From Pseudomonadota bacterium (lineage in GTDB: Bacteria; Bdellovibrionota_B; Oligoflexia; Silvanigrellales; Silvanigrellaceae): a stretch of 64,000 nt of DNA. Location: NCBI GenBank assembly GCA_039799905.1, contig JBDLRP010000019.1, positions 32,001-96,000 of the forward strand, read 5' to 3'. Under the pieces are notes generated by a model. That model was not told the DNA's origin. It searched no databases and worked only from the letters and a program-made list of their open reading frames with translations. Each line of letters opens with the position of its first letter. Within the stretch, counting starts at the first letter, position 1. A program made the translations under genes and the position numbers. This document shows positions 20,311 to 64,000 of this stretch, in pieces.

Positions 20311-20380
20311 ACCCGCTTGAATTACGCGCCAAAACTAATTGAAATTTCACTGCCGCGGGGCGGAACAGAGTGCATCGGTC

Positions 20381-24024: not shown

Positions 24025-24025
24025 A

Positions 24026-38344: not shown

Positions 38345-39898
38345 TTAGTGTTCTCCGTAAAAGAGAATACGGATGCCATCAGCCGTCTTTTCGACAATGC
38401 TTGTCGAACGGTTTGAGCGCGAGTATCCAGCCGCACAGTCGCCGGACTCAGAACCCAGACCTGTGTACCATCCTCCGTCCTGACCACGTCCACGCCAATG
38501 TGTCAGCTTACAGGTTGCCGTGGTTTTGCCTGGTACGGGTTGAGAAACAAATAAATCGGTTCCGAGCTGAACAATGCGGGCAGAATTTGGCGCTACAAAT
38601 GCCGTTCGGGGGCCACTTTCCTGGATGACGTTCATCGAACCCTGCGCATCCTGCAGTGCAAAGGTCGAGTCGTCAGCCCAAATTCTCGCTGACTTTGCCT
38701 GTTTGAGCGTGCCCTCATCATTTACACTCCGAACTGTAACAAAACGTTCCGAATCTTCCTCTACGGAGCTGAGAGTTATTTTGCTGTCACTCACAAAACT
38801 CACTATGGTCTTGGCAATGCCGCTTGCATTGCTCCATGCAACCGACGAAGCAACGGCGTTGTTCGGGTATCTGCGCAATTCAAGTGATTTTCCTAACGAC
38901 GACATGCGTGCGGCATTGTTCCAAGAAAGAAAACCATGATTCCACCAGATGCCGGCTAGATTGATGTCCAGAACACGCAAGTTCTGCGTTCCATCCGGCT
39001 GCAGAATATTCTCTCCCGCAGAGCTCCATTCATTACGAGCAAAGACACTCGACAGTGCGAAGTCGGGCTTAGAGAACATCTGCCTTGTATAGGCAAAAGC
39101 TTGTCCTGATCTGAAGTCGAGCATCAGTGCGGCACCACTGCGGTTCTTGAAAAGCATCCGGCCGAATTCATCGGCCTCAAAGCTGCTGAATACGCCCGAT
39201 CGCGCAATCGGCCAAGAAGCCCGGTTCCAGAGTGTTTTTCGTGCGGCATCCACCCACAACAGTTCGCTGTCGGTTTGAATCACAAGCAACTGCTTGGGCA
39301 GCTCTGTACGATTGCCGGCATTGAGTGATTTGGAACGGATGGCCCACGCTGGCCAACTCAGGCGGCAGATGTCCTGCTTGCCGGATGCCGTGGCAATGGT
39401 TTTTTGCAATTGCGATGCAAAGAGCGTGTAGTCGCCCATGTTTCCGCGCAGGTAAACCGTGTTCGGATCGGCGTCTTTTTCGGTAGGCAGCGTGACCACT
39501 GCCTTGCAGACGCTGCCGTGGCATTCATCAAAGCTCACTCCCGCTTTTTCTGTGCATTGCGCACGCAACCATACACTTTCAGCACCGTTTGCATGCAGAC
39601 GAACGCCGCTGAGCTTGGGAAGCTTTGGGTCATCCCACGCTTCGGGCTGTTGCGACACGGGTGTTTCGTTGTTTTGAATATAGAATCCTGTGCGGATGTG
39701 GTCCGGATGAATCGACATCATGTGCAGTTGCTGCTTGGAGACCTGCAGTGCACTGCGGAACGAGGTGTCGCTGCCGGCTGCGTGATGCTGGGTCGCAACA
39801 AGCGCGATGAGTAAAAGCGTTCTGGCTTTGCACGCGAGGGGTGGCCGGCTCCGAGAGCTGGTATTAAAAAGGTATGTATGAGTGAAAGTGTGTGTCAT
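38345..39898 (-). CDS. Exported beta-rich hypothetical protein, last gene of the giant-protein operon
   Basis: ATG 9 bp after the giant gene stop (alternative TTG 39910 overlaps it); hydrophobic N-terminal segment; beta-rich; paired cysteines. Confidence 0.6.
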   Translation of the reverse strand: MTHTFTHTYLFNTSSRSRPPLACKARTLLLIALVATQHHAAGSDTSFRSALQVSKQQLHMMSIHPDHIRTGFYIQNNETPVSQQPEAWDDPKLPKLSGVRLHANGAESVWLRAQCTEKAGVSFDECHGSVCKAVVTLPTEKDADPNTVYLRGNMGDYTLFASQLQKTIATASGKQDICRLSWPAWAIRSKSLNAGNRTELPKQLLVIQTDSELLWVDAARKTLWNRASWPIARSGVFSSFEADEFGRMLFKNRSGAALMLDFRSGQAFAYTRQMFSKPDFALSSVFARNEWSSAGENILQPDGTQNLRVLDINLAGIWWNHGFLSWNNAARMSSLGKSLELRRYPNNAVASSVAWSNASGIAKTIVSFVSDSKITLSSVEEDSERFVTVRSVNDEGTLKQAKSARIWADDSTFALQDAQGSMNVIQESGPRTAFVAPNSARIVQLGTDLFVSQPVPGKTTATCKLTHWRGRGQDGGWYTGLGSESGDCAAGYSRSNRSTSIVEKTADGIRILFYGEH

Positions 39899-39906
39899 AC
39901 TGGGCC

Positions 39907-42900
39907 TCAATCAGGGTCATCGGGGGTCATAAAATAATAAGGATTACCGGCGGAGTCTTTGAGCCACCAAACTCCGCGCAGATTTTTACCTTTTGTATGG
40001 TCGATCTCGACATCAATTTTGCAGGAACTATTATCCGAAACGTTAGTTTTGTTCATGCAGCGGTCCGTATTCGTCGAGGTCGTCGTGACAAAGAAGAAAG
40101 CATTCTGCATTGGGTGGGCGTTGTATCTCCGCGGTTTGATGAATGTATCATTCGCAGGAACAGAGGGGTCTGCCAGCAGAGGAAAGGTTGTAAAGGTTGT
40201 ATCGAGAGTCTCTACAGAGGCTTTTGCAGTTTCACACTTGCCCGTTGCGCAGTCTGCCCAGGTAAAACCACCGTGGGTGTAGTAAAAAATTCGTCTGTCA
40301 GTCGCCACCGTTGGGACAGTTGTGTCCTCAGCTTGCTCCGCTTTTGTGAGATTTGCACCTGCATCGGCAGCTGTTTCTTGTGGCGCGGTTGTCACTGGTG
40401 CTGTAATTGAATCCGACTTTCTCAATGGGACTCGCAGCACGGGCGAATCTGCAACTAGAACTTTGTTGTTCGATGAAGTGAACCGTAATTTAAACTTACT
40501 CGTCATTTTTCCGGCAACGCCCTCAACGATAAACTGCGCGAAGTTGTTGTTTAAGATGTCTGCCGTCATACTGGGCTTGTGAATCAATTCGGGGTGGGCT
40601 TCGGTTGAGTCCAGTGTCTGCGCAGGTGTAAACGCCTCAGCACTGCTCAGCGTAACACCTGTTTCATTCTTAAATTGACAGAGCGATTCCGCCGCTCTTG
40701 TGGACGTATACATCCATGGAGTGCATTCCACGGTAGGAGCGGTGAGTGTCACCGGTGCTGTAATTTGCACAACGCTGCCGCCCAAATGGCTGGCAGAGTC
40801 CGGCTTGCAGCTGACATCGCCTCTCAGGTACTTGTTTGCAGGCGCAGTCACAGCAAATCCATTTCCAGATGCCGCAAAGACGGCACTGCCGCTTGATCCC
40901 GTGGTAGCAGCTGCCACGGTAACGCCTGTGTCTACGTTGGTGAATGTTGCGCTTGCACCACCTGCTCCGCACGACTTTGTATTCGTGCCGGCGGCAATAA
41001 AGTTTCCGGCTTTATCATAATGCCAAGCAAACAAAGCTCCACAACCCGTTCCGGCAGCCGTTCCTGCTGCGTTGGCCGCACAGGTTCGGGTGAATGAGCA
41101 CTCGCGGGTTGTCTGGATGTTGTCTCCTGCAGATACACAGTTGAATACCGAAGGCTGCACATCGTCTGTCGTAAGCAAGGTGCGGCGCACAGCTCCGGCG
41201 GTGATCGTCAGATCCTCAGTCACACTGACACCGCATTTTGAGAACGTCAGATTGTGTGTGCCGGCCTTGTAAATCTTGAGAGCCGCATTGCTTGGGTTGC
41301 TGTTCGTATTGGTGATCGCAATATTGTCTGCATAGGCACCTTGATCGTTTCCTGTTACATTGACGGTACTGCAGTTGCCACCGCTCTTGGGAGTGGTTGT
41401 ACCATTATCAAATTCGTCTTTCGCCGTGATGGTTGTTGCAATGCTGGAGGTTGCGGTTGGATAAAGGGCATCCACGGTTCCTCCGGTCAATCCGCCAATC
41501 ACAAGTTTTGCCGCAGGGCCCGCACTCACACTGGTAATTGTCACTGATGCAGATTTTCCGCGCACGGATGCTGTGAGAGTCCTATCAGTGTTGTGGACTT
41601 TTTTGAAGTTGAAAAGCGCATTGGGCGAGCATTCACCGCTGGTTGAGAATGTGCAGCTCACTGAACCTGTGTGAATGCAGCTGTTAGTTGGAAGATCAGG
41701 ATCGGCACAGACCAGGTTGGGTTGGCCGGATGTGCTGAACGTCACTGTTTGTGCAGTCGCATTGAGTCCAGGCATCGGTACAAGCGAGGTGTCTTTTTGA
41801 CTTTGAAGTGTCAGTTTTGAAATCTGAAAGTTTCCGAATCCAGCAACAAGCGTTGTGGTTGCAGGCGCGGAAGCAATGCTCAGAGTGTGGGGTCCGCCAA
41901 ACAGGCGGATTGAATTTGACGTGAACGTATCTGAACCAACAGTCTTCTGACAAGAGATGAGTTCGTTTATGTGGGGAGTTGTGCTGTCGGATGCTCTTGT
42001 GCGTGTTTGAACGCCGGCGTTCGCGCCCTCAAGAGTTCCCCCAACTTTCCAGTCGCAGGTGTGTGTTGATGCTGCGGATGCAAGTTTGTTTCCAAATGCA
42101 TCGTAGTGATACGAGAACAAATCAGGGCAGCTGACACCGTCGTTCCCGCCATTCAGAGTGGCGCACGCTACCTCACCATTTGCCGCACTGAAGTTGGGTG
42201 CGGTTGTCTCGGAGCTGATGACAATTCTTCCCAACGTTGTGTTCGACTGAACTGTGAGCGGGATCTGCACGCTCAAGCCGCAACCGTTCGCTGTCACAGG
42301 AATACTGTGATTACCGGCCGCTTTGATTATTAAACTGTCAATCGGGATCGTGACGTTGGTAGCCGCATCGAAGGAACCAAACGTAAATACTGATGTGTCA
42401 CCAGCAGGTGAAGTGGGCAAGGCACCCGCAGTGAAACCAGTGCAGGAGCGGAGGCTATCATTGCCAAAGGTGTCGAAACCCCTCACCGAAACAAGTGTTT
42501 TCAATTCAGAGCCCGCGTTCTGGAGGGATGTTGGGGCAGTGACTACCAAAGACGCGGCGTTTGCCGAATTCACAATCATGCTGAGCGTGTTCGATGTGAT
42601 TCCACGAATTCGAACTGCAACGTCATTGCTGCCGCTCGCTCCGCTGCGGGTCAGGCTGAGTTTCTGATTTGCCGCTATGCCAGACAAAAGCGAGACGGCG
42701 CTGTTGTCGCATTTGCCATCTGCAAATGTGCAGGATGGAGTGTTTGGGACGACATTGTTCGGGGTTCCAAACATCGCTTTTTGCGCCGTGGTGACGAACT
42801 CGATAGGTTCCGTGGCGAAATCATAATCGTCTCTGATTGTCGCGTCGGTTGATACGTCCACTTCAGTATTATTTTGTCTCGTAAATAGCGATATTTTCCT

Positions 42901-45900
42901 GATTCCAACATTGTCATTGCCCGCGACAACAGGATTGGAAGCAGCGCTAAGTATGCCGTTAATTGCGGTGGTCGATGTTCCTCGCAATTCAAGAGCAACC
43001 CTCGAAATTCCACCCTGCACGGGAATTGCAGTCGACAGATTCGAGGCGCCAGTCTGCGCAACGCCGTTGACTGTGCGTTGGCATTGTAAATTACCATCCA
43101 AGAATTTTGAGTGTGTGAGTGTGATGCTCCGACCCAGTGGTAATGAGGCCGCTGCGGGACCGTTCGATGTTCCAATCGGTGTGTAGATCCATTTGCATGA
43201 ATTATTTTGCACGTTATTTAGTAGGTTGCCCTGGTTGTCGCGGAAGTAGGCATAAATCGAATCACAGGTCACGCCGCTTCCCGATTCAGCCGTATGCTTA
43301 CAGTTAATTTTAGCTGGCTGAGTTGTCGACTGCACTGTGGCATCATCAACAATGTTGCTGTTCAGGAATTTGAAGTCGCTGAAGACTCCATTGGTTGTTT
43401 TGATGGTATGAGTAAATGAGAAATTACCGCACGCAGCTGGAGCTGCAAACGTCAAAGTCAAACCAGTCGAGTTTGCATTCCGCAAAGCCGTAGAATTGAG
43501 TGCATAGGTTCCCTTGCTGGTGTCGGCAACGCTAATCGCAGTTCCTTTGTTGGCGGCTGTGAGAGTTGTTCCATGGATTGTGGGTGCTGTGCCAATGGCC
43601 GATTTGTGGTTGTCGAACAGGTCAGTCAATTGAGTTGCAGAGATGGTCAAGTCTTCGCTGCACGACGGATTATCAAAGGCATCGGTCAGATTGAATGTGC
43701 CGCTGATTGTAGCATCTGCTGCGACGGTGTCAGGAACTGTTCGCGAAATGACCTTCGTCGGATTACCTTCCGCAACAATAATATTGTTGCGTACGTTGGC
43801 ATTTGCTCCGGTGATATTGCTCACACCGTGCACGTTGATTGTCAGCGCGCGGGCCGTCGCGTCGGCCCGGACGAAGCTGAAGTTGAACGTCGTAGCACAG
43901 GCACCTGTTGCGCTGAAGTTACAGTCGGTGGCGGGAGTTGATGTGAACAGAGTGCCGTCCAAGCCCGCACTTGCAGTTGTCGAGAAACTGATCGGCAACG
44001 TGCCCGCATATTCGGCATTGATGACAGTGTTGTTCTTGCGTCCCTTCAGCTGCAATCCGCTCACTGCGAAATTGCTTGTGCCTGCTGTGATATTACCGCT
44101 GGCAGGAAGGGTCGCATCAACACTTTGCACACCACCAAAGAGCACAACACCAACTGTTCCTTCTTCTGTTGCTCCACCCGCCTTCACGCAGGTGAGTCTT
44201 GCATCGAGTGCGCTATTTGCTGAAACGCTGATGCTGGGAGAGGGTTGGTTGTCCAGCGCTGGAACCGTCAGAGCAGGAGAGCTCACCGCAAGATTTGTGA
44301 GTGCCCATGAATCACAGGTATCTCCTGCACGGTGATTGCCAAATTGGTCGAAGAACCATGCGCGGATTGTGTCGCAACTTGTTCCTCCGCCCGAGAGCAA
44401 CGAACACTTATCCTCGTCCACGTTCGTCTTGGAGGCCGTCGTCGATTTGTTGAGAAAGAACTTGTGAGCAGCACCGGCAGAAATATTCAAGTTGAGGAGG
44501 TGGCTGACCCCGCATGTGTTGATAGTCAGGGTATTCGCTCCCGGACCTGTGAGTTTCATGTCAGTGAGTTTGTAAACCAAGGCCGTAGCATCAAACGAGT
44601 TCAGAGCCGGACCCGTGAACTTCGTTGCGTTGTCGTTGTTTCCGTTCGCCAAGACGGTTGTTTGAGCGATTGTAGAAGAGTTGGTGGTCGCACAGGTGTT
44701 GCCGTTGTCAGCCCTCTTGTCGGTCTTATTTCCGAATTGGTCCAATAGATCGATGTGAAGATTGAAAGTTTGATCGGCTTGTCTGTCCGCATTCGTTTGG
44801 TTGATTGATGGATTGGAATCAATAATTGCGTCTCCGGCAACGTTGACGAGTTTGAATGTCGTTGTGGTTGCAGATGCATTTGCCGGGTTGACGTTAAAGT
44901 TGCCCGAGTTGATGCTCTTGCCTCGGACAAATGCTGTGAACGAGACTCCTGTTTCCTTGCGGGTGAAGTGCAGCGACAGCGCCGTCGTCGGGTTTGGTGA
45001 TGTTCCGCTGGTGCAAACACCATCCACAAAATTGCAAGTCCATGCAGGGTTGACCACCTCATTTGGATTTCCGGTGACGGCCTTCTGCGCAGTCGTTTGA
45101 AGTGTGACCGACTCCTGGTTGAGGTCTTCTTCAATGGCTGGAAATGTCAGAACCCCAGAGTTATCATAGCTGGGACCCTTGAGAGTGAGTGAGGTGAGAC
45201 TGAACGCAGCGCCTGCGACGACGTTTGTCGTGCTGGAGTGCGCCATTGCTAGACTCTCTATGCCGCCGAAGAAATGAATCGAATGACTCTTGTCGTCGTC
45301 GTTGTCTACAACGCATTTAACCCTGCCATCAATCCAGTCGGAGCTTGTGAGTCTCGTGGAGCTTGTTGTTCCTGTATTTGTGAGTGTTGCGGCAGCTTCG
45401 TTGGAGGTCGGGGTTGTTCCACCGGTTTTTGTGTATGTCCACGATGTGCAGTTCTGTCCGTCTCGTACGTTTCCGAATGAGTCGTAAATGAATGCATTGA
45501 GTGTGTTGCAGACGACTCCCGAGCCAGAGCCAGCGAGAGCGCAGCGCTCGCGCAATATATCATTCGAGGTGTTGCCGCTTGGTGCAGCGTTGCCCGTTGT
45601 CACGCGCGCAAATGCACGCTCGGCCTTGGGAACGATACGCAGCTTGTACACCGTTGTTCGTCCGCAGGCTGTGAAGGTTAGGTCGGTGGTTGTTGCCTTG
45701 CGGATGAGAAGGTCTTCAACCTCAAATTCACCAATTGTACCTGCTTTTGCCGCAAAGATATGGTCTGCATCTATCAGTGTAGACGCAGCGCTGTCCACCG
45801 GCGCATTTAGGTTTGCGGAAGATGCTATTGTCATTCCGGCTTGAGTAGCAACACAACCCACGGCTGTTCTGTTATCGAACTGGTCGAATGCGTTGATGGT

Positions 45901-57900: not shown

Positions 57901-58410
57901 AGCCGGCGCAATCACCCAAACCTTGGCTTTGCCTTCTTTGTTGGTGCGCGTATCGAATTGGTCGATACGTCCAACCCGCTCTTCAATGTCGACTTCCGGT
58001 GCCGCCGCTCCCGAGATGGTGTTCTTCTTTGCCGCAATTGCCGCCGTGCGTATGGCTGCGTTCGAAGACGTCAGCGCTGCAGCTTCGTTTTTCCATGCCT
58101 CGACAATTTTTTCGGTGCTGACGTTTTCGGTGCCACCCAAAAGTGATTCTTCAACCAGCCTGAATTCAATAACGCCCTCGATGACAGGCTGGCCGTTGGG
58201 ATCCTTAACTGTTACCTCGACGGGATTCGGAAAGGGGCGTTTAGGCAGAGAAACCTGCTGTGATCCAGCCAAGACGTCGACCTTCCACCCTAGTGGAGGC
58301 ACCTGTTTGACTCCATCTGAACATGAGAGGGTGAAAATGAGCAGGAGCAGCGCCGCCATCAGATGCACGGCGCCGAGATTTTTCCAGTGATTTTGGAAAC
58401 ATCTCAACAT
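39907..58410 (-). CDS. Giant 6167-aa surface lipoprotein/adhesin with tandem Ig-like repeats
   Basis: Lipobox IFTLSC (Cys30); Big_1/invasin-like first domain (PVEVTVKDPNGQPV); dozens of DxxGN turns; T/A/S/N/G-rich; nine Cys-patterned repeats in the C-terminal half. Confidence 0.88.
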   Translation of the reverse strand: MLRCFQNHWKNLGAVHLMAALLLLIFTLSCSDGVKQVPPLGWKVDVLAGSQQVSLPKRPFPNPVEVTVKDPNGQPVIEGVIEFRLVEESLLGGTENVSTEKIVEAWKNEAAALTSSNAAIRTAAIAAKKNTISGAAAPEVDIEERVGRIDQFDTRTNKEGKAKVWVIAPALFNKKIAVLAQAGPEDNASYSFALLSTSDLKEGSRLVLETANRNKEKVGTEFDMTITIVDTEGRVASTFEGFRKLKIEASPSTSWAGFTPEFPNGEIDCQFSGGRCLVPRGPFRLRVPEKVKYRLSFSDNLVNPIEGDIEATADGERAFIAVKNFQGPPPADSKPITSITLPAGANAQYTGAWIDANGNYLEEVAEATWNIDSDRLLSGLTPKLNNVSDGPAFGNLINFSPSKSGTGLLSVSAENKGLIAPIVVTVPAADQTKWAFRINGQDVGIAPIKAGTCVDVDIFASDNFGNINPNIKGEHTLTLTMESTDTAPVLAKSAHWGDVVNLTQTIVDRKINFSEGLARSVEKACFYDATRPAGATEKPTIKVVGKSELNQVEFQGALELDIAKNQPNRLMVMDANDPSNVGNDSKNVCTRDTREEFGDPCLVFKFGLATDKLRLGLVDVAGNWLRDVKVEWTDTPDGLSGTPNLTLTPGVSATDFSPVLVNKPGTGKITAKAVSTDLSPEEKTAMGFTATENNIFIKYNYVAVSGDPSSLTVEVPSTITAGVDFPVSAVVRDASGARVETQLDTKTTLSNETYRVAKAFTTTPSDSAVSILSNGCHTKNATGDSFNAATFKDDFNTPGKITSGLLEFPGQTLKINRATQGVGDQTPCVMQIKVESTFAGFPTKVVQALIQINPSTVNSIKLRGAANGELGDSNDGADLSVSGTCDGKPEIDGCHVAITKGKSKKLFVAGYDEFKNYAGNVLATFTWTNVAPVIGSIQQYEIEDTIQNLSAAGNSVIDIEVSPEKQGADDTDGPELDSGGGFVTATLKDNTSVTVKSTFFDFVSEVARKFEVDFISPDSENPTVFWSSSDGGPTNPQLLAGMEFAVRLRAVDEFGTPIETYNGRKQIRFVHPALTTWGKPTELPLFEANNISKNKETEFICVFRRVEGAEMRDPTNSSDSKPRYTTTFIDGENLAGSECILRNVNQTAPNEVASKPDGVDEDTRTDARFSMLDTTRAHDFFMFDLTPNSTIDGVVIASAKPLPNTGSDELVLASDCGGVANGDAVAWFLRQKRTAAATEFEQVPFDKTLEAFKLTADESVNLFPAITDSFGNYKGEALSATLTVKNSLTNTEIAGANGNTITSQSLSGTVGTGCSVAHKKFTFAANKATDQESNKTVLVSAAQGTLKQEFKLVVSPGTPSKLRVRLANAIPISDTTSAPVERSANDVIPAGTCLSPIVTVRDTDNNLVHTFSKAVNADFWLTDYYTDALQAGRKKQLIQPGGLYRQNSDGQFIPQTQLDTSHVQSPVTDAANSFFNSTTAMDSKSIKYFGSERSTRIVNGGVLDLRDRFVCLMDSGRSPKFFASIVPAGEPQLDGDTTVEQPLTIGTNTAAAVDYRNVDDEQVCRQPFAVTGFQVYTNILDVEAFKVITGAVPTCRSLQVSSTANAIRGFWTDKVGNFIDSTPAPVGKWISVSAPAGTNILGQGINTCFGGGTPCDETKANLTLENLHQKGNLTATWSPPVSGIPTGFTPVNTFLTLPVKAGLAADFSVALNRNTSPKTDDAFGIIVKLLDEFGNETEPESLPKDGTGYHPTAAFTYLNDAALGAPNGSTTNQLKPTSVTLDFVTATSTTTANIFRLLRATGNATIRTTFAPRGDFVGAGAATTVQRDLTFTVLAGAPVTNQIFFSDISGANKDRAFSTDSDNIFTTTNDFQQVEVRSLDAAGNSTDSPQSVFSYASGFTLLPPQQHPSLPFAGLLPLLQAGTGTLRATLTSNGATTVDYPVRIVAASPTKLRLVRVQSDGTAMPGTGDDPNLTTSTNPPLLPNQSAFFKIQAVDAQNNVAETIAQDGVELSWDFGDYPVRSEGGRAQLPGCPDANCPTPFSQPNTCKMVGGVCKDPASAATDKIYEVRYFGATGATTGKIEVRANLTIGASTSEFAGTFGLKVNPAAFHHYGVIPNRTSVEARADKSGSGGNFSVRVEARDQFGNKVAPPNVSDVIGIKIVREDGTSAPSGVLTGGTTGVFGATNTFINYPNLFYDEPGQFRVVAFGPSDAGMSTIAAAPLINFEAGLFSVADFRLAIPAGVTDVFAGSETTLRFEAVDNYGNPVRGIDNILRNDDYTWAGIGSLTGADGTARQPTQISGQTNTTVKFNSATHGTFIDGVALVKVTFFEARNNYRDTLSINNATQSKAVTIHPAAGNTLRVLPATLNKYRLLATDNSQTGLTSLANNSNRNARSSDGLFRIVVQPLDAFGNLRAGDTGVSLTAEAVDNTLTTTQAVSSTDATFNAAALNLEPADPAINTAFKAGVGFEFKDLFYRVGQKVKWKVTGVPAGVSVEPSVDVVYLPQIETVASYRLKLDNNDANTWPNTTAGTAISLKLEPLDVAGNLVTTGTTLDSALQAQSYTISGVQGSGASAPTLTTTFAFTNGIGVQNGIVLRKSQRFEVGELLVTDNNSGLRKGANAAGYDVVPAAVSTLTPDNIPAQVAGVVTTLRVVATDAFGNLSANGCATPPVVKATDGSNLASPGGHNGSVTNAISNASAGDPLNTTASIGVFQKAMTFFQASENSIFFEGCGVQSAAVVVSVIENFKANEVQLSNSSVEPSTSLTTPQECMPVDGLNANIACPTIFAFMWDEYGNRWRRNSGNCDWTAAQKIPSGETAAIAASGTPAGVPVTDTTATVTNASFINRDLTCTLAGTNTTSGNAIVRTVELFGGIGDLGSFDGTTVTTNPITNPATRNAITAGSTLTITNLALLQWRGGQLQAVNRQRSEEYTLNASGLGTNYQGGSNPLPTNLTVNHAANGVNSSAIDLDMTFPTTPATDTSFTITTRNVSKVIGGIRVSTGVATDIVVGNFNTQSPTAGGDVILSSVDVFDNAGNRAACTTLTITAAASTLPPACNNEACDSVNPNIPFNGIPANFTTRALNANNSRLFTAASPGQFTNLTFQLYKATQAVTLTVDACGLSRNFVFSVLPEATSHVRLAASNTAPSATATAPLVNCPLGNRLDVNCPTVNAFFWDQFGNVNPAGTCTSWSFDKASGSTSKTDGDGFTLAATGTSQSIKTPDTIGSFLSGRLACVSTGGSKGIALMSGGLTSLTATHTFGGTAAATSKTAAANNLTVNDIQARMKKVALSDTSNIDSSLVESEVNKDDIGGLGAQNLVLGSTSGSSGASLTDATLPMVASTTVSCTFNASGACALNANLSLRRAETNRVITVSYRDVTAALPALTVTPAGAHQISPFLWRTIDTDRITVANPMLASDNVGANIRVVDEFGNPTDFINGSNSTACTAAADDITVVGGTLDNTNSTLTTADRLFQNTALGHWVIESTPGTSTGLNVRKAGDHTLRYKMCGLTADLTIRVQPAVLNEIRLHTSAAAPAASLTSLNCPLNATGTGATCQFVNAFFFDAHGNQRIGDTCDHWQFDLRDAPAYNASIPAGTYTVPTPFTAENTNAEANTASVRVNHSNFIDGTLKCTRGAFNRTLPMHGGIAFMNVSHTTGNLTALNGNFSITSVQLHGPAGDNTAVILPQVLTNETIELSSNATRANDPDANAVIPSAAVTCNFSQNSKAECTTAMSASFTKVETARNLTVKVRGLTYTTPNFNVVANNADSITARVYTGADPTTEANQRSVATPLVAGESFRATVNAVDQFSNDTSGNCNAAAMTITSSVNLNDPLGGASQLTGGGVAFAADAGFTGRFSVNNNMNIKKATTTTLTFTACGRTTTRDIKIVPAAHSYTRVSTAEAAPAANTAAATLKQRCPLAASGAGVTCEPLNAFMYDVFGNLREGDTCTTWTYAATTGTTHSGTLFESDGNKVTRSSTGGARTTRITSTDWMDGTVTCANGAITHSIQFFGGITKLDVTHTSTAAVTAGSAFALNSVQLTGPTYTADVFSMAALPDNLNAEPVSLQTTAVKASAGNPAEVVKPAWTCNFVAGVCDGDPAPSIADALNLNFSKAQDGITFSVFVRGKVFSPAVFNVAPTTASRIAARVWTTANTDANLKNETTPLSAGDAFGATINAFDQFDNRTAVGCVATQAGMTIASSANLNAPVDSAASTLIDADHIFAAKAGTIGEFEVEDLLIRKATTTDLTFTACGRTTVYKLRIVPKAERAFARVTTGNAAPSGNTSNDILRERCALAGSGSGVVCNTLNAFIYDSFGNVRDGQNCTSWTYTKTGGTTPTSNEAAATLTNTGTTSSTRLTSSDWIDGRVKCVVDNDDDKSHSIHFFGGIESLAMAHSSTTNVVAGAAFSLTSLTLKGPSYDNSGVLTFPAIEEDLNQESVTLQTTAQKAVTGNPNEVVNPAWTCNFVDGVCTSGTSPNPTTALSLHFTRKETGVSFTAFVRGKSINSGNFNVNPANASATTTTFKLVNVAGDAIIDSNPSINQTNADRQADQTFNLHIDLLDQFGNKTDKRADNGNTCATTNSSTIAQTTVLANGNNDNATKFTGPALNSFDATALVYKLTDMKLTGPGANTLTINTCGVSHLLNLNISAGAAHKFFLNKSTTASKTNVDEDKCSLLSGGGTSCDTIRAWFFDQFGNHRAGDTCDSWALTNLAVSSPALTVPALDNQPSPSISVSANSALDARLTCVKAGGATEEGTVGVVLFGGVQSVDATLPASGNITAGTSNFAVSGLQLKGRKNNTVINAEYAGTLPISFSTTASAGLDGTLFTSTPATDCNFSATGACATTFNFSFVRADATARALTINVHGVSNITGANANVRNNIIVAEGNPTKVISRTVPDTVAADATISGTFNLTDAFDNPSCSEDLTISATQLTDLFDNHKSAIGTAPTIHGTTLTAANKGTAISVADTSKGTYALNSTALRNANSTGLTLTFAAPAACGNFSFTHTIKTTNGVFSDFKFLNSNIVDDATVQSTTQPAKINCKHTAESGSGVTCDSIYAYFRDNQGNLLNNVQNNSCKWIYTPIGTSNGPAAASLPLGRSITLTHSKFLDGNLQCQRTVNGVAQTGASNLSTAIPVQGGISRVALELRGTSTTAINGILSAASNPVVAGNDNVGIRKISLFTRQNNTEVDVSTDATIRDDYDFATEPIEFVTTAQKAMFGTPNNVVPNTPSCTFADGKCDNSAVSLLSGIAANQKLSLTRSGASGSNDVAVRIRGITSNTLSMIVNSANAASLVVTAPTSLQNAGSELKTLVSVRGFDTFGNDSLRSCTGFTAGALPTSPAGDTSVFTFGSFDAATNVTIPIDSLIIKAAGNHSIPVTANGCGLSVQIPLTVQSNTTLGRIVISSETTAPNFSAANGEVACATLNGGNDGVSCPDLFSYHYDAFGNKLASAASTHTCDWKVGGTLEGANAGVQTRTRASDSTTPHINELISCQKTVGSDTFTSNSIRLFGGPHTLSIASAPATTTLVAGFGNFQISKLTLQSQKDTSLVPMPGLNATAQTVTFSTSGQPNLVCADPDLPTNSCIHTGSVSCTFSTSGECSPNALFNFKKVHNTDRTLTASVRGKSASVTITSVSAGPAAKLVIGGLTGGTVDALYPTATSSIATTITAKDEFDNGTTTPKSGGNCSTVNVTGNDQGAYADNIAITNTNSNPSNAALKIYKAGTHNLTFSKCGVSVTEDLTITAGAVRRTLLTTDDVQPSVFNCVSAGDNIQTTRECSFTRTCAANAAGTAAGTGCGALFAWHYDKAGNFIAAGTNTKSCGAGGASATFTNVDTGVTVAAATTGSSGSAVFAASGNGFAVTAPANKYLRGDVSCKPDSASHLGGSVVQITAPVTLTAPTVECTPWMYTSTRAAESLCQFKNETGVTLSSAEAFTPAQTLDSTEAHPELIHKPSMTADILNNNFAQFIVEGVAGKMTSKFKLRFTSSNNKVLVADSPVLRVPLRKSDSITAPVTTAPQETAADAGANLTKAEQAEDTTVPTVATDRRIFYYTHGGFTWADCATGKCETAKASVETLDTTFTTFPLLADPSVPANDTFIKPRRYNAHPMQNAFFFVTTTSTNTDRCMNKTNVSDNSSCKIDVEIDHTKGKNLRGVWWLKDSAGNPYYFMTPDDPD
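40700..50700 (-). repeat. Nine diverged ~1.13-kb (~375-aa) intragenic repeat units (bounds approximate)
   Basis: Anchor motif C-x4-[AS]-[FWY]-xx-D-xx-GN near 50050, 48900, 47740, 46610, 45490, 44360, 43250, 42110 and 41020. Confidence 0.85.
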
Positions 58411-58498
58411 TATTGAATTCTCCCGCGAACGCCCTAAACGTCCACAGGTGAGTTCGTCCGATTGTGCAAGAAACTTGAGGACTCAATTACAGCGTCTG

Positions 58499-59089
58499 TC
58501 AAAGGTAAAGAAGTGCACCAAATCGGGGTCTTAGCAATAGACCTGAGAAGTCTGCGACGCTTGTGCCCACGGCAATGGAGGCATCAACGTTGACGTCCAG
58601 CGCCACATTGCCGAACAACTTATAGTGGGTCCCCATTCCAACACCGACCGAAAAGTAATTCGCGCTCACTTCGGCGAGTTTCACTGCACCAAACGTATCA
58701 ATGAGGTAGCGCCCCCAGCCAACCTTGGCGTGCAGGTAGGGTTTGACTGATGACGAGTATCGCAAGGTGCTGGAATCGTGCAGGTCCTCAAAATCAGTTC
58801 CATATTGGAATGGGTAGTATTGTATGCCACCCCGGGTCTCCATGATTTGGGTGAGATTGGCATTTGCAGACTTTCCAGCTTGAAATTCGACAACTGCTGC
58901 CAGAATTCTCGACCTGAACGAAAGCCACCTGATGTCGACATTTTGCACGTTCAGATCTTGTCCGGCTCTGTACCCGCTGATTGAGGAAACAATGGCTCCT
59001 GTCGAGATTCCCAAGGCGGACACGACTTCGGCGTGCGCCATTTGTGGTAACAGAAAAAGCGGGAGAAGTGTCAGAAGTCTTCTCATCAC
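58499..59089 (-). CDS. Small outer-membrane beta-barrel protein (~8 strands)
   Basis: Signal peptide (AHA-E); KPYLHAKVGWG, VGVGMGTHY and C-terminal PRFGALLYL; 4-bp overlap with the upstream gene. Confidence 0.75.
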   Translation of the reverse strand: MMRRLLTLLPLFLLPQMAHAEVVSALGISTGAIVSSISGYRAGQDLNVQNVDIRWLSFRSRILAAVVEFQAGKSANANLTQIMETRGGIQYYPFQYGTDFEDLHDSSTLRYSSSVKPYLHAKVGWGRYLIDTFGAVKLAEVSANYFSVGVGMGTHYKLFGNVALDVNVDASIAVGTSVADFSGLLLRPRFGALLYL

Positions 59090-59703
59090 TTTTTGCCCCG
59101 CGCTTTTCCTTTTCCGCCGGCGGGAGCATCGGGGCTTGCGCCGGTTTCGGCCAGCAGTGCGCGAATTTCTGTATCCGACGGGTCGAGTGCGAGCGCCTTG
59201 TAGAACGCCTCGCGGGCCTTTTCGGCCTGATTTTGCAACATGTAAACAGTTCCTTCGAAAGTATACGCTGCTGCAATGTTTGGGTTTGCCGCTCGTGATT
59301 TTTCGAGTGACTTCAGCGCTTCCTTAAAGTTCTTATCGATGATCTGCCGCTCAGCTTCCAGTAGAAACCGCACTGCGGTGTTGATGTCCGCAGAGTCGTC
59401 GGAACCTATGGGAAGCATATTTGCTTCGATTTCAAGTTTTCCGCCACCCAGATTAGGAATGACGAAGTTTTGATTGCGGTATCCGGCTCTCTTCAGAGTC
59501 AAAACGATTGTGCTCTTGTTAGAGAACTTGCTGAGTTCAGCCATCTCCTGCTGCAACGGTGTCTTGCCCAGCAATTTTCCGTTCTCTTGTCCTGGGACGG
59601 ACATTATCACATCCACTCCGGGAGGTTTGCTGGTGATGCTGACGCTCGCGCAACCAGCAAAGAGTGGAAGCGCAAGACAAAGAGCGGAGAGTCTCAGTTG
59701 CAT
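59086..59703 (-). CDS. PEGA-like + TPR lipoprotein
   Basis: LFAGC lipobox; ITSKPPGVDV...LGKTP...LKRAGY (PEGA-like); TPR helices (AAAYTFEGTVY, AFYKALALDP). Confidence 0.85.
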   Translation of the reverse strand: MQLRLSALCLALPLFAGCASVSITSKPPGVDVIMSVPGQENGKLLGKTPLQQEMAELSKFSNKSTIVLTLKRAGYRNQNFVIPNLGGGKLEIEANMLPIGSDDSADINTAVRFLLEAERQIIDKNFKEALKSLEKSRAANPNIAAAYTFEGTVYMLQNQAEKAREAFYKALALDPSDTEIRALLAETGASPDAPAGGKGKARGKK

Positions 59704-59845
59704 AGATGCGACCTCGAAAAGTGTTCGGCCGTGCAAGTCCGGCAGCAAGAAAAATATGCCTGAGAAGAACGACGGACTCAAAGTTACCTTACCGTGACGG
59801 TCGTCAGCCGTGCCGATGCTCGTGCAATTTTTGCCGCAGTCCCGA

Positions 59846-59872
59846 TGAATCATTTTTCAAATGTTCCGATGA
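59846..59872 (+). promoter_or_regulatory. Possible sigma28-like promoter of the fusion-motAB operon
   Basis: TGAA-N15-TCCGATGA, 55 bp upstream of ATG 59928. Confidence 0.25.
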
Positions 59873-59927
59873 GGTGCGGTGGCAGGAGAGGCGGATGATC
59901 CGCTAGTTCTGCAGAAGGCAGAGGAAC

Positions 59928-62201
59928 ATGAAGCGCTTGAATTTTAAAAATTCAACATACATTGTCGGGTTGCGCCGCGCGTTGGTGCAGTCGCTGGTGT
60001 CTGCGCGGCGTGGTCTTCTTTACTGTTTGCTTTTTTTGACACTGCTCTTGGGCGGAATATGGCCACACTCGCTTTTGGCACAGACAAGTGGTCGCGCAAC
60101 ACTGACGCAGACTCTTGATGCAAAGGTTGCCGAGGCTGAGCAGTTCCTTGAAGAACGTCTCAACAAGCGGTTGGAAGCCGTCACGGATCCGCCTTTCCTG
60201 ACAACTGTCCGAGTCGATTTTCCCGTGACAAAGCTCAATTCGCTGCGACAGTCGGCGGGTGGTAACGTGTCGAAACTCTCGCGCGGTGCTTTGTCAAAAG
60301 GGATCAGCAACGACGACGCGCTCATCAGCCTGCTCAATGCACTGACACCGCTGGAAATCCTCTCCAACGCGCAACGGGTTACAGTTGTTGTCACGTTGGA
60401 CCAAACCTTTCCCAAGGATTCGGTTGCCGATCTCAAAACAACCCTGCAGTCGTACCTGCGTCTGAATTCGAAGCGCGGCGACAAGCTCGACATCAATCAG
60501 AAGGACCTCACAGCCGGCCGTTCGAAGTCGAAGGTGGAGAGGGCCGAAAAGGAAAGTCAGCAATACAAGAGCCAGATTGACAATCTGCAGCGAGAGCTTG
60601 AGGCCATCCGCCGGCGCGAGGGTGATGCACAGCGCGACGTGACCGAAGCACGTCGTAAAGAGCAGGACGCGCAGGCTCAATTGCGCGAGGCACAGCGTGC
60701 GACCGAAGATGCCAAGCAAAAGCAGCGCGAGGAGCAGGACAAAGCAGCAAAGGCGGAGGAAGAACGGCGCAAGCTTTCCGTTGAAATCGACGATCTTAAA
60801 AAGCAGATCACCGAGCTCACTGAAAAGAATAAAGACATTGCTGAAGAGGCAAAAACGCCGATCGGGAGGTTCAAAAAGCTTGTCGCAGGTCTCGAATTGC
60901 CGTTGACGGTTGTACCGGCGGTGCTTATCGGGCTGATAGGAATTCTGGTGATCGTTTTGATTCAAACCTCGCGCGTCAAGTCGGCTAGCACCGACATGAC
61001 ACAGACAATGATCCAGGTTTCAGCAGCTGTGGCAAAAATCGGCGAATCGATTGTTCAGGCCGCCAAGGTACAGGGCAAGCAACAGGGCGATGCAATCAAT
61101 GTATCCGCAGGCGGAGCTGCAGCCCTTCAACAGAACATGCAATCATCCAACGATTCCACCTCCGAGGAGCTCATCGCTCTTGAGAAGGAAGCACAAAGCC
61201 TTCTCGCAGATATGAATCAAAGCCGGTATCCGATGCTCAGTATTCTTAAAGACTGGCTTGCAGACAAGCGCGAGCGCACCAAGTTTGCAGGATTCTCGGA
61301 GGCTGTCGGGCCCAACGCCGCGCGCGAAATCTTCAAAGTCTTTCCCAAGGAAGAGGTCGAGGCTCTTGGCAACGCATTGTATGAGCCACTGGCAAAGGCA
61401 CAGGCTTATAAGGTGGTTCTCCAGCTCTACCGGCTCGCCGGACGCGAAATCAGCCGCAAGCCGAGTTACTTTACAAATCTCGACCTCACATACCTCATTG
61501 GTGCCACCGACATCGAACTCAGCAACGCGTTGTCCGAAGCCGGCACTGTCGAGGCCGCGCGGTTGATGGTTCTGCTCACACCCGAGCGTTGTGCGCGCAT
61601 CATTCCGGGCATCCGTAATCACGACAGCATGGAATTGCTCGAGGCGATGCGGGAGTCGACCGGGATGAGCGAGGACGATGCCAAGGCTGCACTTGCCGAC
61701 GTCAAGGGCAGAATGAACAACGACCGCGGCGGTGACTCCAAGTTCGACGTCACCAACCACCTCATGCTCATGCTCGATGCTCCCAATCCGGAGTTCAGAA
61801 CGGCGGTCAGCCGTGTTCTGCGCGCCGACAAGCAGCTCTCGCAGCAAGTGGGCTCGCGCGTTGTCACCATCGAGGAGGTTCTCCGCTTGGATGATGAAAC
61901 ACTTGCCGAGCTGCTCGCTGAACTCGAGCCTGCCGATGTTGCGACTCTGCTTGTGTCATTGCCAGAGGAGTTGAATGATCGCATCAATCAGTTCTTCACT
62001 TCAAACAAGATCCAGGCCGCCATCCGTCAGGAGCTCGACAAGTTCGAGCGCTCAAAGATGGCACGAAAGCGTGCGGAATTCGAAGGTCAAAAGATACAGG
62101 CTGCACTCATCCGTCAAGTCAAGGACATGCGCGAGCAGGGCCTGATTGAAATGGCGGATGATGGCGAGTCCGGCGGTGAAGAAGAGGCGGAGGCATCCTG
62201 A
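59928..62201 (+). CDS. FliF(RBM3)-coiled coil-TM-FliG fusion protein
   Basis: Signal-like N-terminus; RBM3-like EQFLEERLNKRL...VRVDF / RVTVVVTLD...LNSKRGDKLDI; coiled coil aa ~199-309; one TM; FliF-tail-like ILKDWL; FliG N/M/C-like segments (VGPNAAREIFKVF, LDDETLAELL, IQAALIRQVKDMREQGLI). Confidence 0.78.
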   Translation: MKRLNFKNSTYIVGLRRALVQSLVSARRGLLYCLLFLTLLLGGIWPHSLLAQTSGRATLTQTLDAKVAEAEQFLEERLNKRLEAVTDPPFLTTVRVDFPVTKLNSLRQSAGGNVSKLSRGALSKGISNDDALISLLNALTPLEILSNAQRVTVVVTLDQTFPKDSVADLKTTLQSYLRLNSKRGDKLDINQKDLTAGRSKSKVERAEKESQQYKSQIDNLQRELEAIRRREGDAQRDVTEARRKEQDAQAQLREAQRATEDAKQKQREEQDKAAKAEEERRKLSVEIDDLKKQITELTEKNKDIAEEAKTPIGRFKKLVAGLELPLTVVPAVLIGLIGILVIVLIQTSRVKSASTDMTQTMIQVSAAVAKIGESIVQAAKVQGKQQGDAINVSAGGAAALQQNMQSSNDSTSEELIALEKEAQSLLADMNQSRYPMLSILKDWLADKRERTKFAGFSEAVGPNAAREIFKVFPKEEVEALGNALYEPLAKAQAYKVVLQLYRLAGREISRKPSYFTNLDLTYLIGATDIELSNALSEAGTVEAARLMVLLTPERCARIIPGIRNHDSMELLEAMRESTGMSEDDAKAALADVKGRMNNDRGGDSKFDVTNHLMLMLDAPNPEFRTAVSRVLRADKQLSQQVGSRVVTIEEVLRLDDETLAELLAELEPADVATLLVSLPEELNDRINQFFTSNKIQAAIRQELDKFERSKMARKRAEFEGQKIQAALIRQVKDMREQGLIEMADDGESGGEEEAEAS

Positions 62202-62240
62202 TATGAACGCCAGTCGCCAGTTGCTTGAGAAAGGGCAGTT

Positions 62241-63035
62241 ATGAATTCAACCGTCATAGGTTTCATTCTCGCGTGGGTGTTTTGTTTTTACATCATTCAG
62301 CACTCCGTCAAGGACCTGAAGGTGTTCAACGACATTCCCGGATTTTTGTTGATCGTCGGTTGCACCGTGGCGATGTCGCTTATGGCCAACACATTAGAAG
62401 AAAATAAAAGAATTTTTAAAGCCATGACAGATGGCTTCAAGCGGCGGGTCGACAAAAAACAGGAAATTGTCACCGAGATTGTCACCGTTGCCAAAGTTAC
62501 CAACGGTGATACGCGTATGCTGGAACAACAATTGGGCAGCATTCAGCAGCCGTTCTTCAAAGAAGGCGTCGGTCTCATTTTGGACCGCTTCAAGCCCGAT
62601 CAAATTGAATCGATCATGTCTGACCGTATCGAAAGTCACAAACAATACCTTCACAAAAAAACACATGGCCTGAAAGCTTTGGCTAAGTATCCTCCGGCAT
62701 TCGGAATCATTGCCTGTGTGGTGTCGCTGATTGCGGTGATGCAGCGTCTGGGCGGCGAGCTCAAAGCAGGCGATCTAGGGCCGTCCATGGCGGTCGGGTT
62801 GGTGGGAACACTGATCGGACTGCTGGCAGCAAACTTCATCATCATGCCCTTGGGCGAGAACTCGGAGCATCGAGATAAAATCGAACTCAAGGAACGTGAA
62901 ATTATTTTGCAGGGTGTGTTGATGCTCGCAAACAAGGAAACACCGCTCTTTGTGCAAGAAAAACTCAACTCCTATCTGAAGGAAGACAAACGAGTGGATG
63001 TGCTGGGAGTCGGCGGGGGTGGAAAAGCGGCATAA
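62241..63035 (+). CDS. motA: MotA/PomA-family stator A subunit
   Basis: 264 aa, four TMs; LLIVGCT, PFFKEGVGL, YPPAFGII, MAVGLVGTLIGLLAANFIIMPLG, IILQGVL...P...EKL. Confidence 0.92.
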   Translation: MNSTVIGFILAWVFCFYIIQHSVKDLKVFNDIPGFLLIVGCTVAMSLMANTLEENKRIFKAMTDGFKRRVDKKQEIVTEIVTVAKVTNGDTRMLEQQLGSIQQPFFKEGVGLILDRFKPDQIESIMSDRIESHKQYLHKKTHGLKALAKYPPAFGIIACVVSLIAVMQRLGGELKAGDLGPSMAVGLVGTLIGLLAANFIIMPLGENSEHRDKIELKEREIILQGVLMLANKETPLFVQEKLNSYLKEDKRVDVLGVGGGGKAA

Positions 63036-63053
63036 GAATTGACGAGGTGATTT

Positions 63054-64000
63054 TTGGCGCGCGGCTTGTTCGATAACTCAAGAGATCCATCTTCGCCCGC
63101 AGACAGCGCGGCGGGGAAAACTCTTGACAAAAAAAAGCTGCCGCAGATGCCTCTTCCAAAAAGAAAGAGCAGTTCTGAAGACGAGGGCGGCGGTGGCGGC
63201 GGTCATGAAAGTGATGACACACTCTGGCTCTACAGCTTCAACGACATGCTTTTCAATTTGCTGCTTTTTTTTATCGTGATGTACTCAATTTCACAAGTCG
63301 ACGAAAAGAAATTTGCGGAAGTTCAGCAGGCACTTCAAGGCGATAAAAAGCCGGCGCTGCTCAAAGACGATGACAAGGAAGGCGTTGTGGTCGGTCCACG
63401 CAACGGCGCGCTCGATGCCAAGCAGCTTGCCTCATCCGGTGGTGAGGCAGGCGGTGACAAAAGCGCCGAAATTGCCGCTGCAATCCGCTTTATGCTCGAG
63501 CGTTCGGAAAAATCAAAAGTCAAACTTGCCAAGGGTGCGGGCAAGGAAGATGAAAAGAAGGAAGAGAAAAACAACAAAAAGAGCAAATATATTTCGGGAA
63601 CCAATATCCCGCTTCCGATGAAACTTGTTTTTCCCCACACCGAATTTTTTCAAAAAGGCACTGCCGATTTGAGCCCCGAGGGGGCTGAGAATCTCTCGCG
63701 CCTCGCAGAAGAAATTAAAGCAGTCGAGAAGCTCGGCCGCGCAGATATCGAGGTGCATACCGAATTTTCCCGCGATATGATTGCTAATCTTAAAGGGCAG
63801 TCGCAGCTCAGTACACTCAAAATCGCGACACTGCGCGCCGGTGTGATGTTCGAGTATTTTGTCAAAGGAGGAGTTCCGCACAAGAAGGTGGTGAGCGCCG
63901 GTTATGCCGACGGACGCCCTATTGTTCTCGGTGAGAATCTGACCCCACAGCAGCGCGCTGATTTTTCAGCCAGCAACGATCGTGTCATTGTTAGTCTGTT
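63054..64000 (+). CDS. motB: MotB-family stator B subunit (3' end runs off window)
   Basis: Not in the ORF track; TTG 63054 after GAGGTGA (alternative ATG 63147). WLYSFNDMLFNLLLFFIVMYSISQVDEKKF (TM Asp plus plug), then an OmpA-like domain FFQKGTADL...IEVHTE...LRA...GYADGRP...NDRV. Confidence 0.9.
   Translation, partial: MARGLFDNSRDPSSPADSAAGKTLDKKKLPQMPLPKRKSSSEDEGGGGGGHESDDTLWLYSFNDMLFNLLLFFIVMYSISQVDEKKFAEVQQALQGDKKPALLKDDDKEGVVVGPRNGALDAKQLASSGGEAGGDKSAEIAAAIRFMLERSEKSKVKLAKGAGKEDEKKEEKNNKKSKYISGTNIPLPMKLVFPHTEFFQKGTADLSPEGAENLSRLAEEIKAVEKLGRADIEVHTEFSRDMIANLKGQSQLSTLKIATLRAGVMFEYFVKGGVPHKKVVSAGYADGRPIVLGENLTPQQRADFSASNDRVIVSL

Follow-up and report, generated by a model that had tools for sequence, protein, structure and literature searches.

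To our knowledge, rings of FliG turned by MotAB stators are known from flagella only. Ion-driven motors work at the cell surface in other machines as well: the gliding apparatus of Bacteroidota combines the GldLM motor with a GldKN ring near the outer membrane and the SprB adhesin, and myxobacterial Agl-Glt carries the lipoprotein adhesin CglB on small outer-membrane barrels and includes TPR proteins. For the Bacteroidota type IX secretion and gliding machinery, excerpts of one account give an ion-driven 5:2 motor with a surface adhesin of ~6000 amino acids (aa) as cargo (PMC8986121). Here we describe a locus from a member of the Silvanigrellaceae (Bdellovibrionota) in which a gene for a FliF/FliG-like fusion, followed by motA and motB, stands back to back with genes for a PEGA-TPR lipoprotein, a small barrel and a giant lipoprotein. 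The window, by which we mean the whole 64,000-nucleotide stretch under study, is G000:C19:32001-96000, where G000 is the source genome (GCA_039799905.1) and C19 its contig (JBDLRP010000019.1). An earlier sequence-only reading had proposed a non-flagellar motor coupled to a giant surface adhesin. Sequence comparison and structural modelling establish here which parts make up this module, that they are conserved and that they stand apart from the flagellar gene set. The module is real, conserved and undescribed in the literature searched; subscription journals and the supplements of one bioRxiv paper, which might list the Bdellovibrio genes named below, lay outside the scope of that search, in which no description was found.

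A single-chain rotor protein built from parts of FliF and FliG

The rotor protein is, as had been proposed, a natural single-chain fusion, with the correction that of FliF only the RBM3 part is present. A probable signal peptide reaching to A51 is followed by an RBM3-like domain (54-195), a coiled coil (195-305), a membrane helix (~327-345) and FliG-like N-terminal, middle and C-terminal domains (~412-740), the last of which includes a torque helix, K694...E702. Pfam matches in the chain are to FliG_C, FliG_N (below cut-off) and MgtE_N, and a profile of the fusion matches FliG 1lkv with E 6.5e-34. In the AlphaFold model, made from 102 homologues (pLDDT 83, pTM 0.53), residues 14-42 form a helix and residues 54-192 an alpha/beta domain; an unbroken helix (195-305) comes next, then a membrane helix, and the cytoplasmic part is helical. 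Aligned with VIA-align, residues 56-195 match the RBM3 (S-ring) of FliF 8z5v_A with Z 14.0 and a root-mean-square deviation of 1.6 Å over 98 aligned positions, the next unrelated rows falling below Z 8, and residues 645-740 match FliG-C 1qc7_B with Z 11.1. The family takes all of the best 150 places in a library at 50% identity and so has at least 150 members; a protein 85% identical to the window's fusion comes from a Silvanigrellaceae bacterium.

In place of a complete FliF, with RBM1, RBM2, RBM3 and two membrane helices, the model has one RBM; RBM1 and RBM2 were not found in the fusion, and a PF01514 search of the genome returned only the gene on contig C21. RBM1 and RBM2 of FliF house the export gate; in the model, short helices take the place of the beta-collar, the part of FliF that encloses the rod. 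We rejected the idea that the N-terminal hydrophobic stretch is the first membrane helix of FliF (TM1): position 51 is Ala, Gly or Ser in 87 of 102 homologues and position 52 is Gln in 45 of 102, and the N-terminal helix, which ends in a signal-peptidase-like site, is probably a cleaved signal peptide. Between RBM3 and the membrane the homologues have a median of 101 residues (range 13-176, n = 102), with 135 in the window's fusion and 26 in the genome's own FliF, and the coiled coil of ~110 residues would span ~16 nm. In 82/102 homologues the torque helix pairs an acid at 702 with a basic residue at 694/695. These positions, like those of MotA below, were matched by eye to R281/D289 of E. coli FliG and R90/E98 of MotA, numbered as in the portion of PMC12505986 consulted. 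An EHPQ-like FliM-binding motif, present in the genome's flagellar FliG, occurs in a single one of the 102 fusion homologues.

A flagellar-type stator outside the flagellar MotA clade

The MotA of the window has full-length matches to the PomA, MotP and MotA models, all under their cut-offs, together with a match to Pfam MotA_ExbB. Its MotB has the ion-binding aspartate (D64), a plug and an OmpA-type peptidoglycan-binding domain (Pfam MotB_plug and OmpA), and the ion-binding Asp motif is kept in 78/79 related MotB. In a quick tree of 73 rows, the 26 flagellar MotA form a clade with support 100, outside which the 29 module MotA fall. The nearest neighbour of a MotA is among the three nearest neighbours of its fusion in 66 of 90 loci; the correlation of fusion and MotA distances is modest (rho 0.27), and shared descent alone could yield it.

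Two other settings of motAB turned up in addition. A separate MotA clade (L104, L105, L106, L121, L123 and L131) has motA-motB followed by a helicase of ~1400 aa with weak matches to the anti-phage ProA/Hhe models, which may represent Zorya-like defence. Orphan motAB pairs beside a gene that we labelled ClpA-like by eye (L114, L115, L117, L119, L128, L129, L130, L132 and L135) are sister to the stator type found on contig C29 of G000, and in such genomes a C29-type fusion lies elsewhere (L139, L140, L266).

The module stands apart from the flagellar gene set

The sequence-only reading had noticed no fliM/N, rod, hook, export-gate or flagellin genes in the window, and family searches place every one of them on other contigs. 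The canonical flagellar set of G000 has FliF on C21, FliG on C39, FlhA and FliM/N on C36 and motAB on C45, with eight flagellin and five rod/hook matches on contigs other than C19; fliM/N occurs on C36 only, as does the single FHIPEP gene. A canonical fliF and a canonical fliG are thus both present away from the fusion. Past 64 kb the right arm continues into a FecR-like gene and a HAMP-SpoIIE phosphatase gene, without a flagellar operon.

Among 32 genomes chosen for having the fusion, 30 have flagellin and FliF. In the other two, G034 (96% complete) and G047 (93%), neither was detected, nor were FlhA or a rod protein, and the sole FliG-C match was the fusion, with three flagellated genomes as controls; absence from a draft is no proof, yet four families are missing together. 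Above all because these two genomes keep fusion and motAB without detectable flagellar genes, the proposal of a non-flagellar rotor and stator is well supported; with no flagellar operon following, a separate fliF and fliG and the conserved linkage described below, we regard such a pair as very likely.

Conserved linkage to an outer-membrane arm

The fusion is present in 11/12 same-genus genomes, and in neighbourhoods from related genomes the fusion, motA, motB, PEGA-TPR, FecR-like and SpoIIE genes stand together in changing order. The linkage between the motor genes and the putative adhesin arm, searched for in other genomes, is conserved. To put numbers on it we used the best 80 of 150 module-type MotA loci, from Oligoflexia, Bdellovibrionales and Bacteriovoracaceae, a sample that is biased to one MotA clade, since it was found with a closer MotA alignment, and that overlaps the neighbourhoods examined otherwise; locus scans with two divergent alignments gave no usable pattern. 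In these 80 loci motB was seen in 79, the fusion in 58 (after one profile iteration), the TPR lipoprotein in 52, SpoIIE in 30, the FecR-like gene in 24 and the barrel in 17. A surface-type open reading frame (ORF) of at least 900 aa, as picked by a composition filter made for this analysis, occurs in 28/80 loci as against 159 of 5000 (3.2%) random 20-kb windows of G000, the one genome from which the background was drawn. All but one of the 15 large surface-type neighbours scanned match a Pfam family, mostly FN3, Big_1, TIG, RCC1, NHL and LamG.

The PEGA-TPR lipoprotein is the most constant partner of the fusion (52/80 loci). Its lipobox Cys18 is invariant in all 32 aligned sequences, and PEGA is found in 10% of the members of two Atlas clusters. 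The small barrel matches Pfam OMP_b-brl with E 0.0029, under the cut-off, and NspA 1p4t by profile with E 0.0026. In G006 one TPR protein is fused to an OmpA-type wall-binding domain, an arrangement compatible with a rotating coupler and equally with a fixed anchor in the envelope. A chain of this kind, in which the TPR part is a PEGA-TPR lipoprotein, is encoded at L065:4350-6020, in a stretch without motAB, between a fusion gene and a gene for a 2398-aa FN3/RCC1 lipoprotein. Large TPR proteins of 820-1180 aa adjoin modules in L059, L062, L066, L070, L071, L184 and L188; we take them to recall the gliding protein AgmU/GltD, and a link to Glt-like proteins was set aside when no Glt model of NCBIfam matched.

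G000 itself has two further modules, at C29:98087-105805 (L001) and C46:78708-88921 (L005), each with an outer-membrane protein, a TPR protein, motA, motB and a rotor-like protein of 848 or 604 aa; their partners are others, with no giant, and the match of the C46 rotor is weak (E 2.3e-6). A related locus (L186) is also present in a strain of Oligoflexus tunisiensis that is in culture.

The giant lipoprotein and its exchangeable place

The giant has a lipobox-like Cys30, at a position invariant in the consensus of the N-terminal alignment, a Thr/Ala/Ser/Gly-rich composition and, by self-comparison, about nine degenerate repeats of ~375 aa between ~2620 and ~5900. It had been called an Ig-repeat protein. 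Pfam gives no Ig match, nor any other, over its whole length, and NCBIfam none in the first 3137 aa; the label finds its backing in relatives, with Big_1 in 8 of 21 N-terminal parts and a match to PDB 4uj7 (E 1.8e-5). Domain scans of the sequence recognised no binding-tip domain.

The N-terminal part of the giant matches 25 of 131 genomes, and all 25 hold a fusion: ten belong to the genus, and of the 15 others 12 have a second rotor subtype, the fusions of G072, G114 and G056 having been found by inspection. Among 103 genomes that lack the giant and lie outside the genus, 5 have this second subtype, and four same-genus genomes with a second, divergent giant carry it too. Giant and motor genes are adjacent in 13 of the 25 genomes (in G056 giant, TPR, motA, motB and fusion all run in one direction), and in another 3 the giant is flanked by TPR and barrel alone. 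Since unrelated large surface-type proteins often stand in the giant's place, the cargo appears exchangeable and is sometimes missing, as in G047.

The exported protein of ~517 aa is a genus-level accessory judging by its distribution: it occurs in 8 of 33 family genomes, all of genus g1, lies directly behind the giant in 4 relatives and has no Pfam or NCBIfam match. Homology to a 499-aa protein behind the giant of G056 was not accepted (E 0.002). At L145 (G006:C235:8001-14370) two giants of the same family follow one another in tandem, separated by a 505-aa homologue of the 517-aa protein.

Layout of the locus and neighbouring genes

The seven ORFs that the sequence-only reading had listed were all recovered at its coordinates (Table 1). 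The gene pairs TPR/barrel and giant/517-aa protein have 4-base stop/start overlaps, and the ATG at 59703 gives the TPR lipoprotein its length and the gap between the arms its width. A promoter scan of that gap was uninformative, with 2 sites against 0.9 +/- 1.0 by chance.

Table 1. Features of the motor locus, in window positions.
Feature	Position	Strand	Basis or remark
Exported protein, ~517 aa	38345..39910	-	No known family; accessory
Giant lipoprotein, 6167 aa	39907..58410	-	Self-comparison, composition, relatives
Small outer-membrane beta-barrel, 196 aa, NspA/OmpA-like size	58499..59089	-	Weak profile matches
PEGA-TPR lipoprotein, 205 aa	59086..59703	-	Pfam TPR; lipobox Cys18
224-bp region between divergent arms	59704..59927	.	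Coordinates
Rotor fusion, 757 aa	59928..62201	+	AlphaFold model, structural and profile matches
motA	62241..63035	+	Pfam MotA_ExbB; flagellar type
motB, 321 aa	63054..64000 (+19 bases past window)	+	Pfam MotB_plug and OmpA

After motB, in the same direction, come the FecR-like gene (311 aa) and the HAMP-SpoIIE gene (751 aa) at G000:C19:96016-99203 (L004:16-3203). They extend the motB operon and count among the module's conserved parts. For the 311-aa gene the FecR label is a lead only (Atlas 0.86), with no Pfam match, and a Pfam scan of 14 proteins gave no FecR match. The ORFs past the window, read by eye, include no SctV/SctRST gate, ATPase or secretin.

A coiled-coil OmpA-family lipoprotein (window 36285-37205, minus strand) and a 350-aa protein (37277-38329, plus strand) flank the locus in the same order in 5 same-genus loci. 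A lone gene for a 318-aa FliG-like protein without a membrane anchor lies 21 kb past motB (G000:C19:117561-118517), with similar lone genes in L141, L107, L108, L143, L068 and L070. Farther off, window 20339-27087 holds a sugar-use cluster recognised by Pfam (GH38 mannosidase, DUF4434, a GlcNAc 2-epimerase family protein and a sodium:solute symporter). One metatranscriptome has 32 contigs of at least 99% identity to the locus, covering 24 of 30 bins at depths of 0.3-4.5 and mostly on the giant; these could derive from DNA and are hence not used as evidence.

Parallels in Bdellovibrio

By gene names only, the motAB2 locus of Bdellovibrio bacteriovorus HD100 (Bd3013-Bd3028) looks like the same module. 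A supplement (files 3 and 5) to one study, as far as drawn on here, lists two extra 'FliG' proteins in HD100, Bd3014 and Bd0876, the first of them near Bd3013 (PP2C), motB2/motA2 (Bd3020/Bd3021) and Bd3028 (FN3), with the proteins made (PMC12546842). No paper on Bd3014 or Bd0876 was found in the literature searched. According to excerpts of a preprint, motAB1 and motAB2 are missing in epibiotic predators and motAB3 is present in all (bioRxiv 10.1101/2025.02.19.638989). In the portion of PMC12505986 consulted, a MotAB phylogeny names FliG once and no such module. If the motAB2 locus is the same module, it can be tested in a model predator.

The second extra gene, Bd0876, lies beside an invasion adhesin gene, Bd0875. 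By 15 min after contact with prey the levels of the two proteins have increased, for Bd0876 from 7.39 to 8.04 and for Bd0875 from 4.51 to 5.73 (PMC12546842, supplementary data in part). Bd0875 is described as a lipobox adhesin at the invasion site, in excerpts that do not mention bd0876 (PMC11003981).

A model for the motor and its alternatives

We lean towards reading the module as a stand-alone, flagellum-derived ion motor that turns one way and drives a platform in the outer membrane, by which large lipoproteins of the surface are exported or moved. That a ring forms and rotates, which proteins touch and what the motor achieves are all inferred from the parts. The fusion would build a ring through its RBM3 and FliG domains, and peptidoglycan-anchored MotA5B2 stators would pass ions over the MotB Asp and turn that ring via the FliG torque helix; true rotation of the motor is probable. 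Without FliM and FliN, the ring would turn in one direction and ignore chemotaxis. If the absence of RBM1/RBM2 and of the beta-collar means that there is no export gate and no rod, then the ~16-nm coiled coil would be a drive shaft that carries the RBM3 ring up to the neighbourhood of the outer membrane, where the PEGA-TPR lipoprotein and the small barrel would couple the ring to the giant lipoprotein. The giant would thereby be brought to the surface or moved there, for adhesion or for traction on prey or surfaces, with the FecR-like protein and the HAMP-SpoIIE phosphatase as regulators of the motor. That the output acts on a surface lipoprotein is a step that gene content and neighbourhood slightly favour.

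Several observations weigh against this model. The R90/E98 rotor-contact pair, compared by eye, is kept in 26/26 flagellar and 7/29 module MotA, and the window's MotA has Asn at the place of R90 and Glu at that of E98; such degenerate charges weaken the case for a strict copy of the flagellar contact. Stalks at the short end of the 13-176 range could not extend as far as the outer membrane, neither a bushing nor an enzyme that opens the wall was seen by which the ring could cross the peptidoglycan, and an 8-stranded barrel is too narrow for passage of a folded protein. No fusion was seen in 22/80 motA loci and no surface-type ORF in 52/80, many of which are incomplete. Fusions are common in the phylum and related genomes are not independent, and three of the six rows of the profile for the second rotor subtype were chosen beside giants. 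In the stretches compared upstream of giant homologues, 7 loci have no module gene, one of these (G056) having the module downstream; in G039 some ~540 kb separate the motor genes from giant, TPR and barrel; and the giant is not obligatory, G047 having none beside its module and no PEGA-TPR found there. For the earlier proposal that the motor is coupled to a giant adhesin, the support comes from gene neighbourhood and co-occurrence only, with an exchangeable partner and with 9/25 giant-bearing genomes lacking resolved adjacency (6 without adjacency or with contig ends, and 3 with neighbourhoods outside the comparison).

The published view of Bdellovibrio bears on another point against the model, since the three B. 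bacteriovorus motAB pairs are read, in the excerpts consulted, as powering one flagellum (PMC13689555). On that pattern the window's motAB would be an alternative flagellar stator and the fusion a dock or relic, in other words spare flagellar parts; 30/32 fusion-bearing genomes are flagellated, and Bd3014, Bd3020 and Bd3021 have the same time course as the flagellar FliG Bd3403 (PMC12546842, supplement file 3, in part). We hold this to be very improbable, given that two near-complete genomes keep the module with no flagellar gene detected, that the fusion has stayed intact, with conservation over 100 clusters at 50% identity, that genomes G016 and G025 of the cultured-type genus g5 have a single MotA, and that FliL, in the parts of PMC11323537 drawn on, bound MotB3 and not MotB2. 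Some cross-use of stators between module and flagellum may nevertheless occur. Morehouse et al. 2011 is reportedly to be counted with the flagellar reading of the three pairs.

Two further explanations accept a non-flagellar pair and give it other work. The FecR-like and SpoIIE genes, which follow motB in the same direction and are seen in 24/80 and 30/80 loci, would suit a surface sensor, in which adhesin and platform load the rotor-stator pair, the FecR-like and HAMP-SpoIIE proteins respond to its stalling or to the flow of ions, and little work is done outward; excerpts of PMC11323537 report that stator mutations (motA3 and fliL) alter the lifestyle of B. bacteriovorus. Such a sensor seems unlikely when 50/80 loci show no SpoIIE, the C29 and C46 modules of G000 show neither gene, the torque helix is conserved and the FecR assignment is no firmer than stated above. 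Degenerate MotA charges, variable stalk length and giant-less modules with other outer-membrane partners (C29, C46, G047) would instead suit a non-rotating transducer of Ton/Tol style, in which a small number of fusion molecules, their stalks extending to an outer-membrane partner, are pulled or twisted by MotAB in transport or envelope upkeep, with giants adjacent since envelope genes cluster. Yet RBM3 and FliG, both ring-building domains, are both kept, MotB has plug and peptidoglycan-binding domain as in flagellar stators, and surface-type ORFs are enriched about tenfold, which makes this transducer rather improbable.

Carried further, the platform-driving motor could be a third product of the flagellar lineage beside flagellum and injectisome: a self-contained rotary engine of one rotor gene and one stator pair that, by means of its coiled-coil shaft, spins a platform in the outer membrane and so exports or drives giant lipoprotein adhesins. 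A genome would hold several paralogous copies, each equipped with a stator and a cargo of its own. The 'extra' motAB pairs and fliG genes of Bdellovibrio would then be accounted for, and possibly the force for prey attachment or entry as well; we offer this tentatively, with doubt somewhat outweighing conviction. A motor core of three genes that lacks gate, rod and switch would put the flagellar engine to a new use and be the injectisome's mirror image, and a natural minimal motor would serve questions on the origin or reuse of the flagellum. If this proposal is true, the reading of the multiple Bdellovibrio motAB pairs changes, in an organism for which mutants and tools exist.

Comparison with known systems

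By its sequence the module is not a flagellum, a type III secretion system or an Agl-Glt machine. It shares with the flagellar motor core (FliF MS-ring, FliG, MotA5B2/PomA5B2) the RBM3 fold, the FliG middle and C-terminal domains with their torque helix, a flagellar-type MotA and a MotB with ion-binding Asp, plug and peptidoglycan-binding domain. It differs in that its fusion is a natural single chain, as opposed to the engineered FliF-FliG fusions (PDB 8z4d), without RBM1/RBM2 or beta-collar and with a probable cleaved signal peptide, a long coiled-coil stalk and no FliM-binding motif. In place of the R90/E98 pair stand Asn and Glu in the window's MotA, there is no FliM/FliN switch, and the module has no export gate, rod, hook or filament nearby and is kept in genomes without a detected flagellum. 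Non-flagellar type III secretion systems likewise derive from the flagellar basal body and have RBM rings; they, however, kept the export gate and lost the motor, whereas the module kept the motor and shows no gate. In B. bacteriovorus HD100 the motAB2 locus has matching gene names, the sole basis of that comparison, while published work treats motAB2 as a flagellar stator.

Agl-Glt resembles the module in its ion motor, TPR proteins, small barrels and surface lipoprotein adhesin, but AglRQS is TolQR-like and has no FliG ring, whereas the module's MotB binds the wall; no Glt or Agl family of NCBIfam matched among 20 proteins scanned. No Gld, Spr or Por family of Pfam or NCBIfam matched among the module proteins scanned, the genome not having been searched for them. 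The type IX/gliding machine of Bacteroidota (GldLM, GldKN, SprB) is what the module, by analogy, may work like, since the module too has a probable ion motor and a surface protein of ~6000 aa and would have a periplasmic ring near the outer membrane, with the differences that the driven ring of the module would be FliF/FliG-derived and sit in the inner membrane and that its cargo would be N-terminally lipidated.

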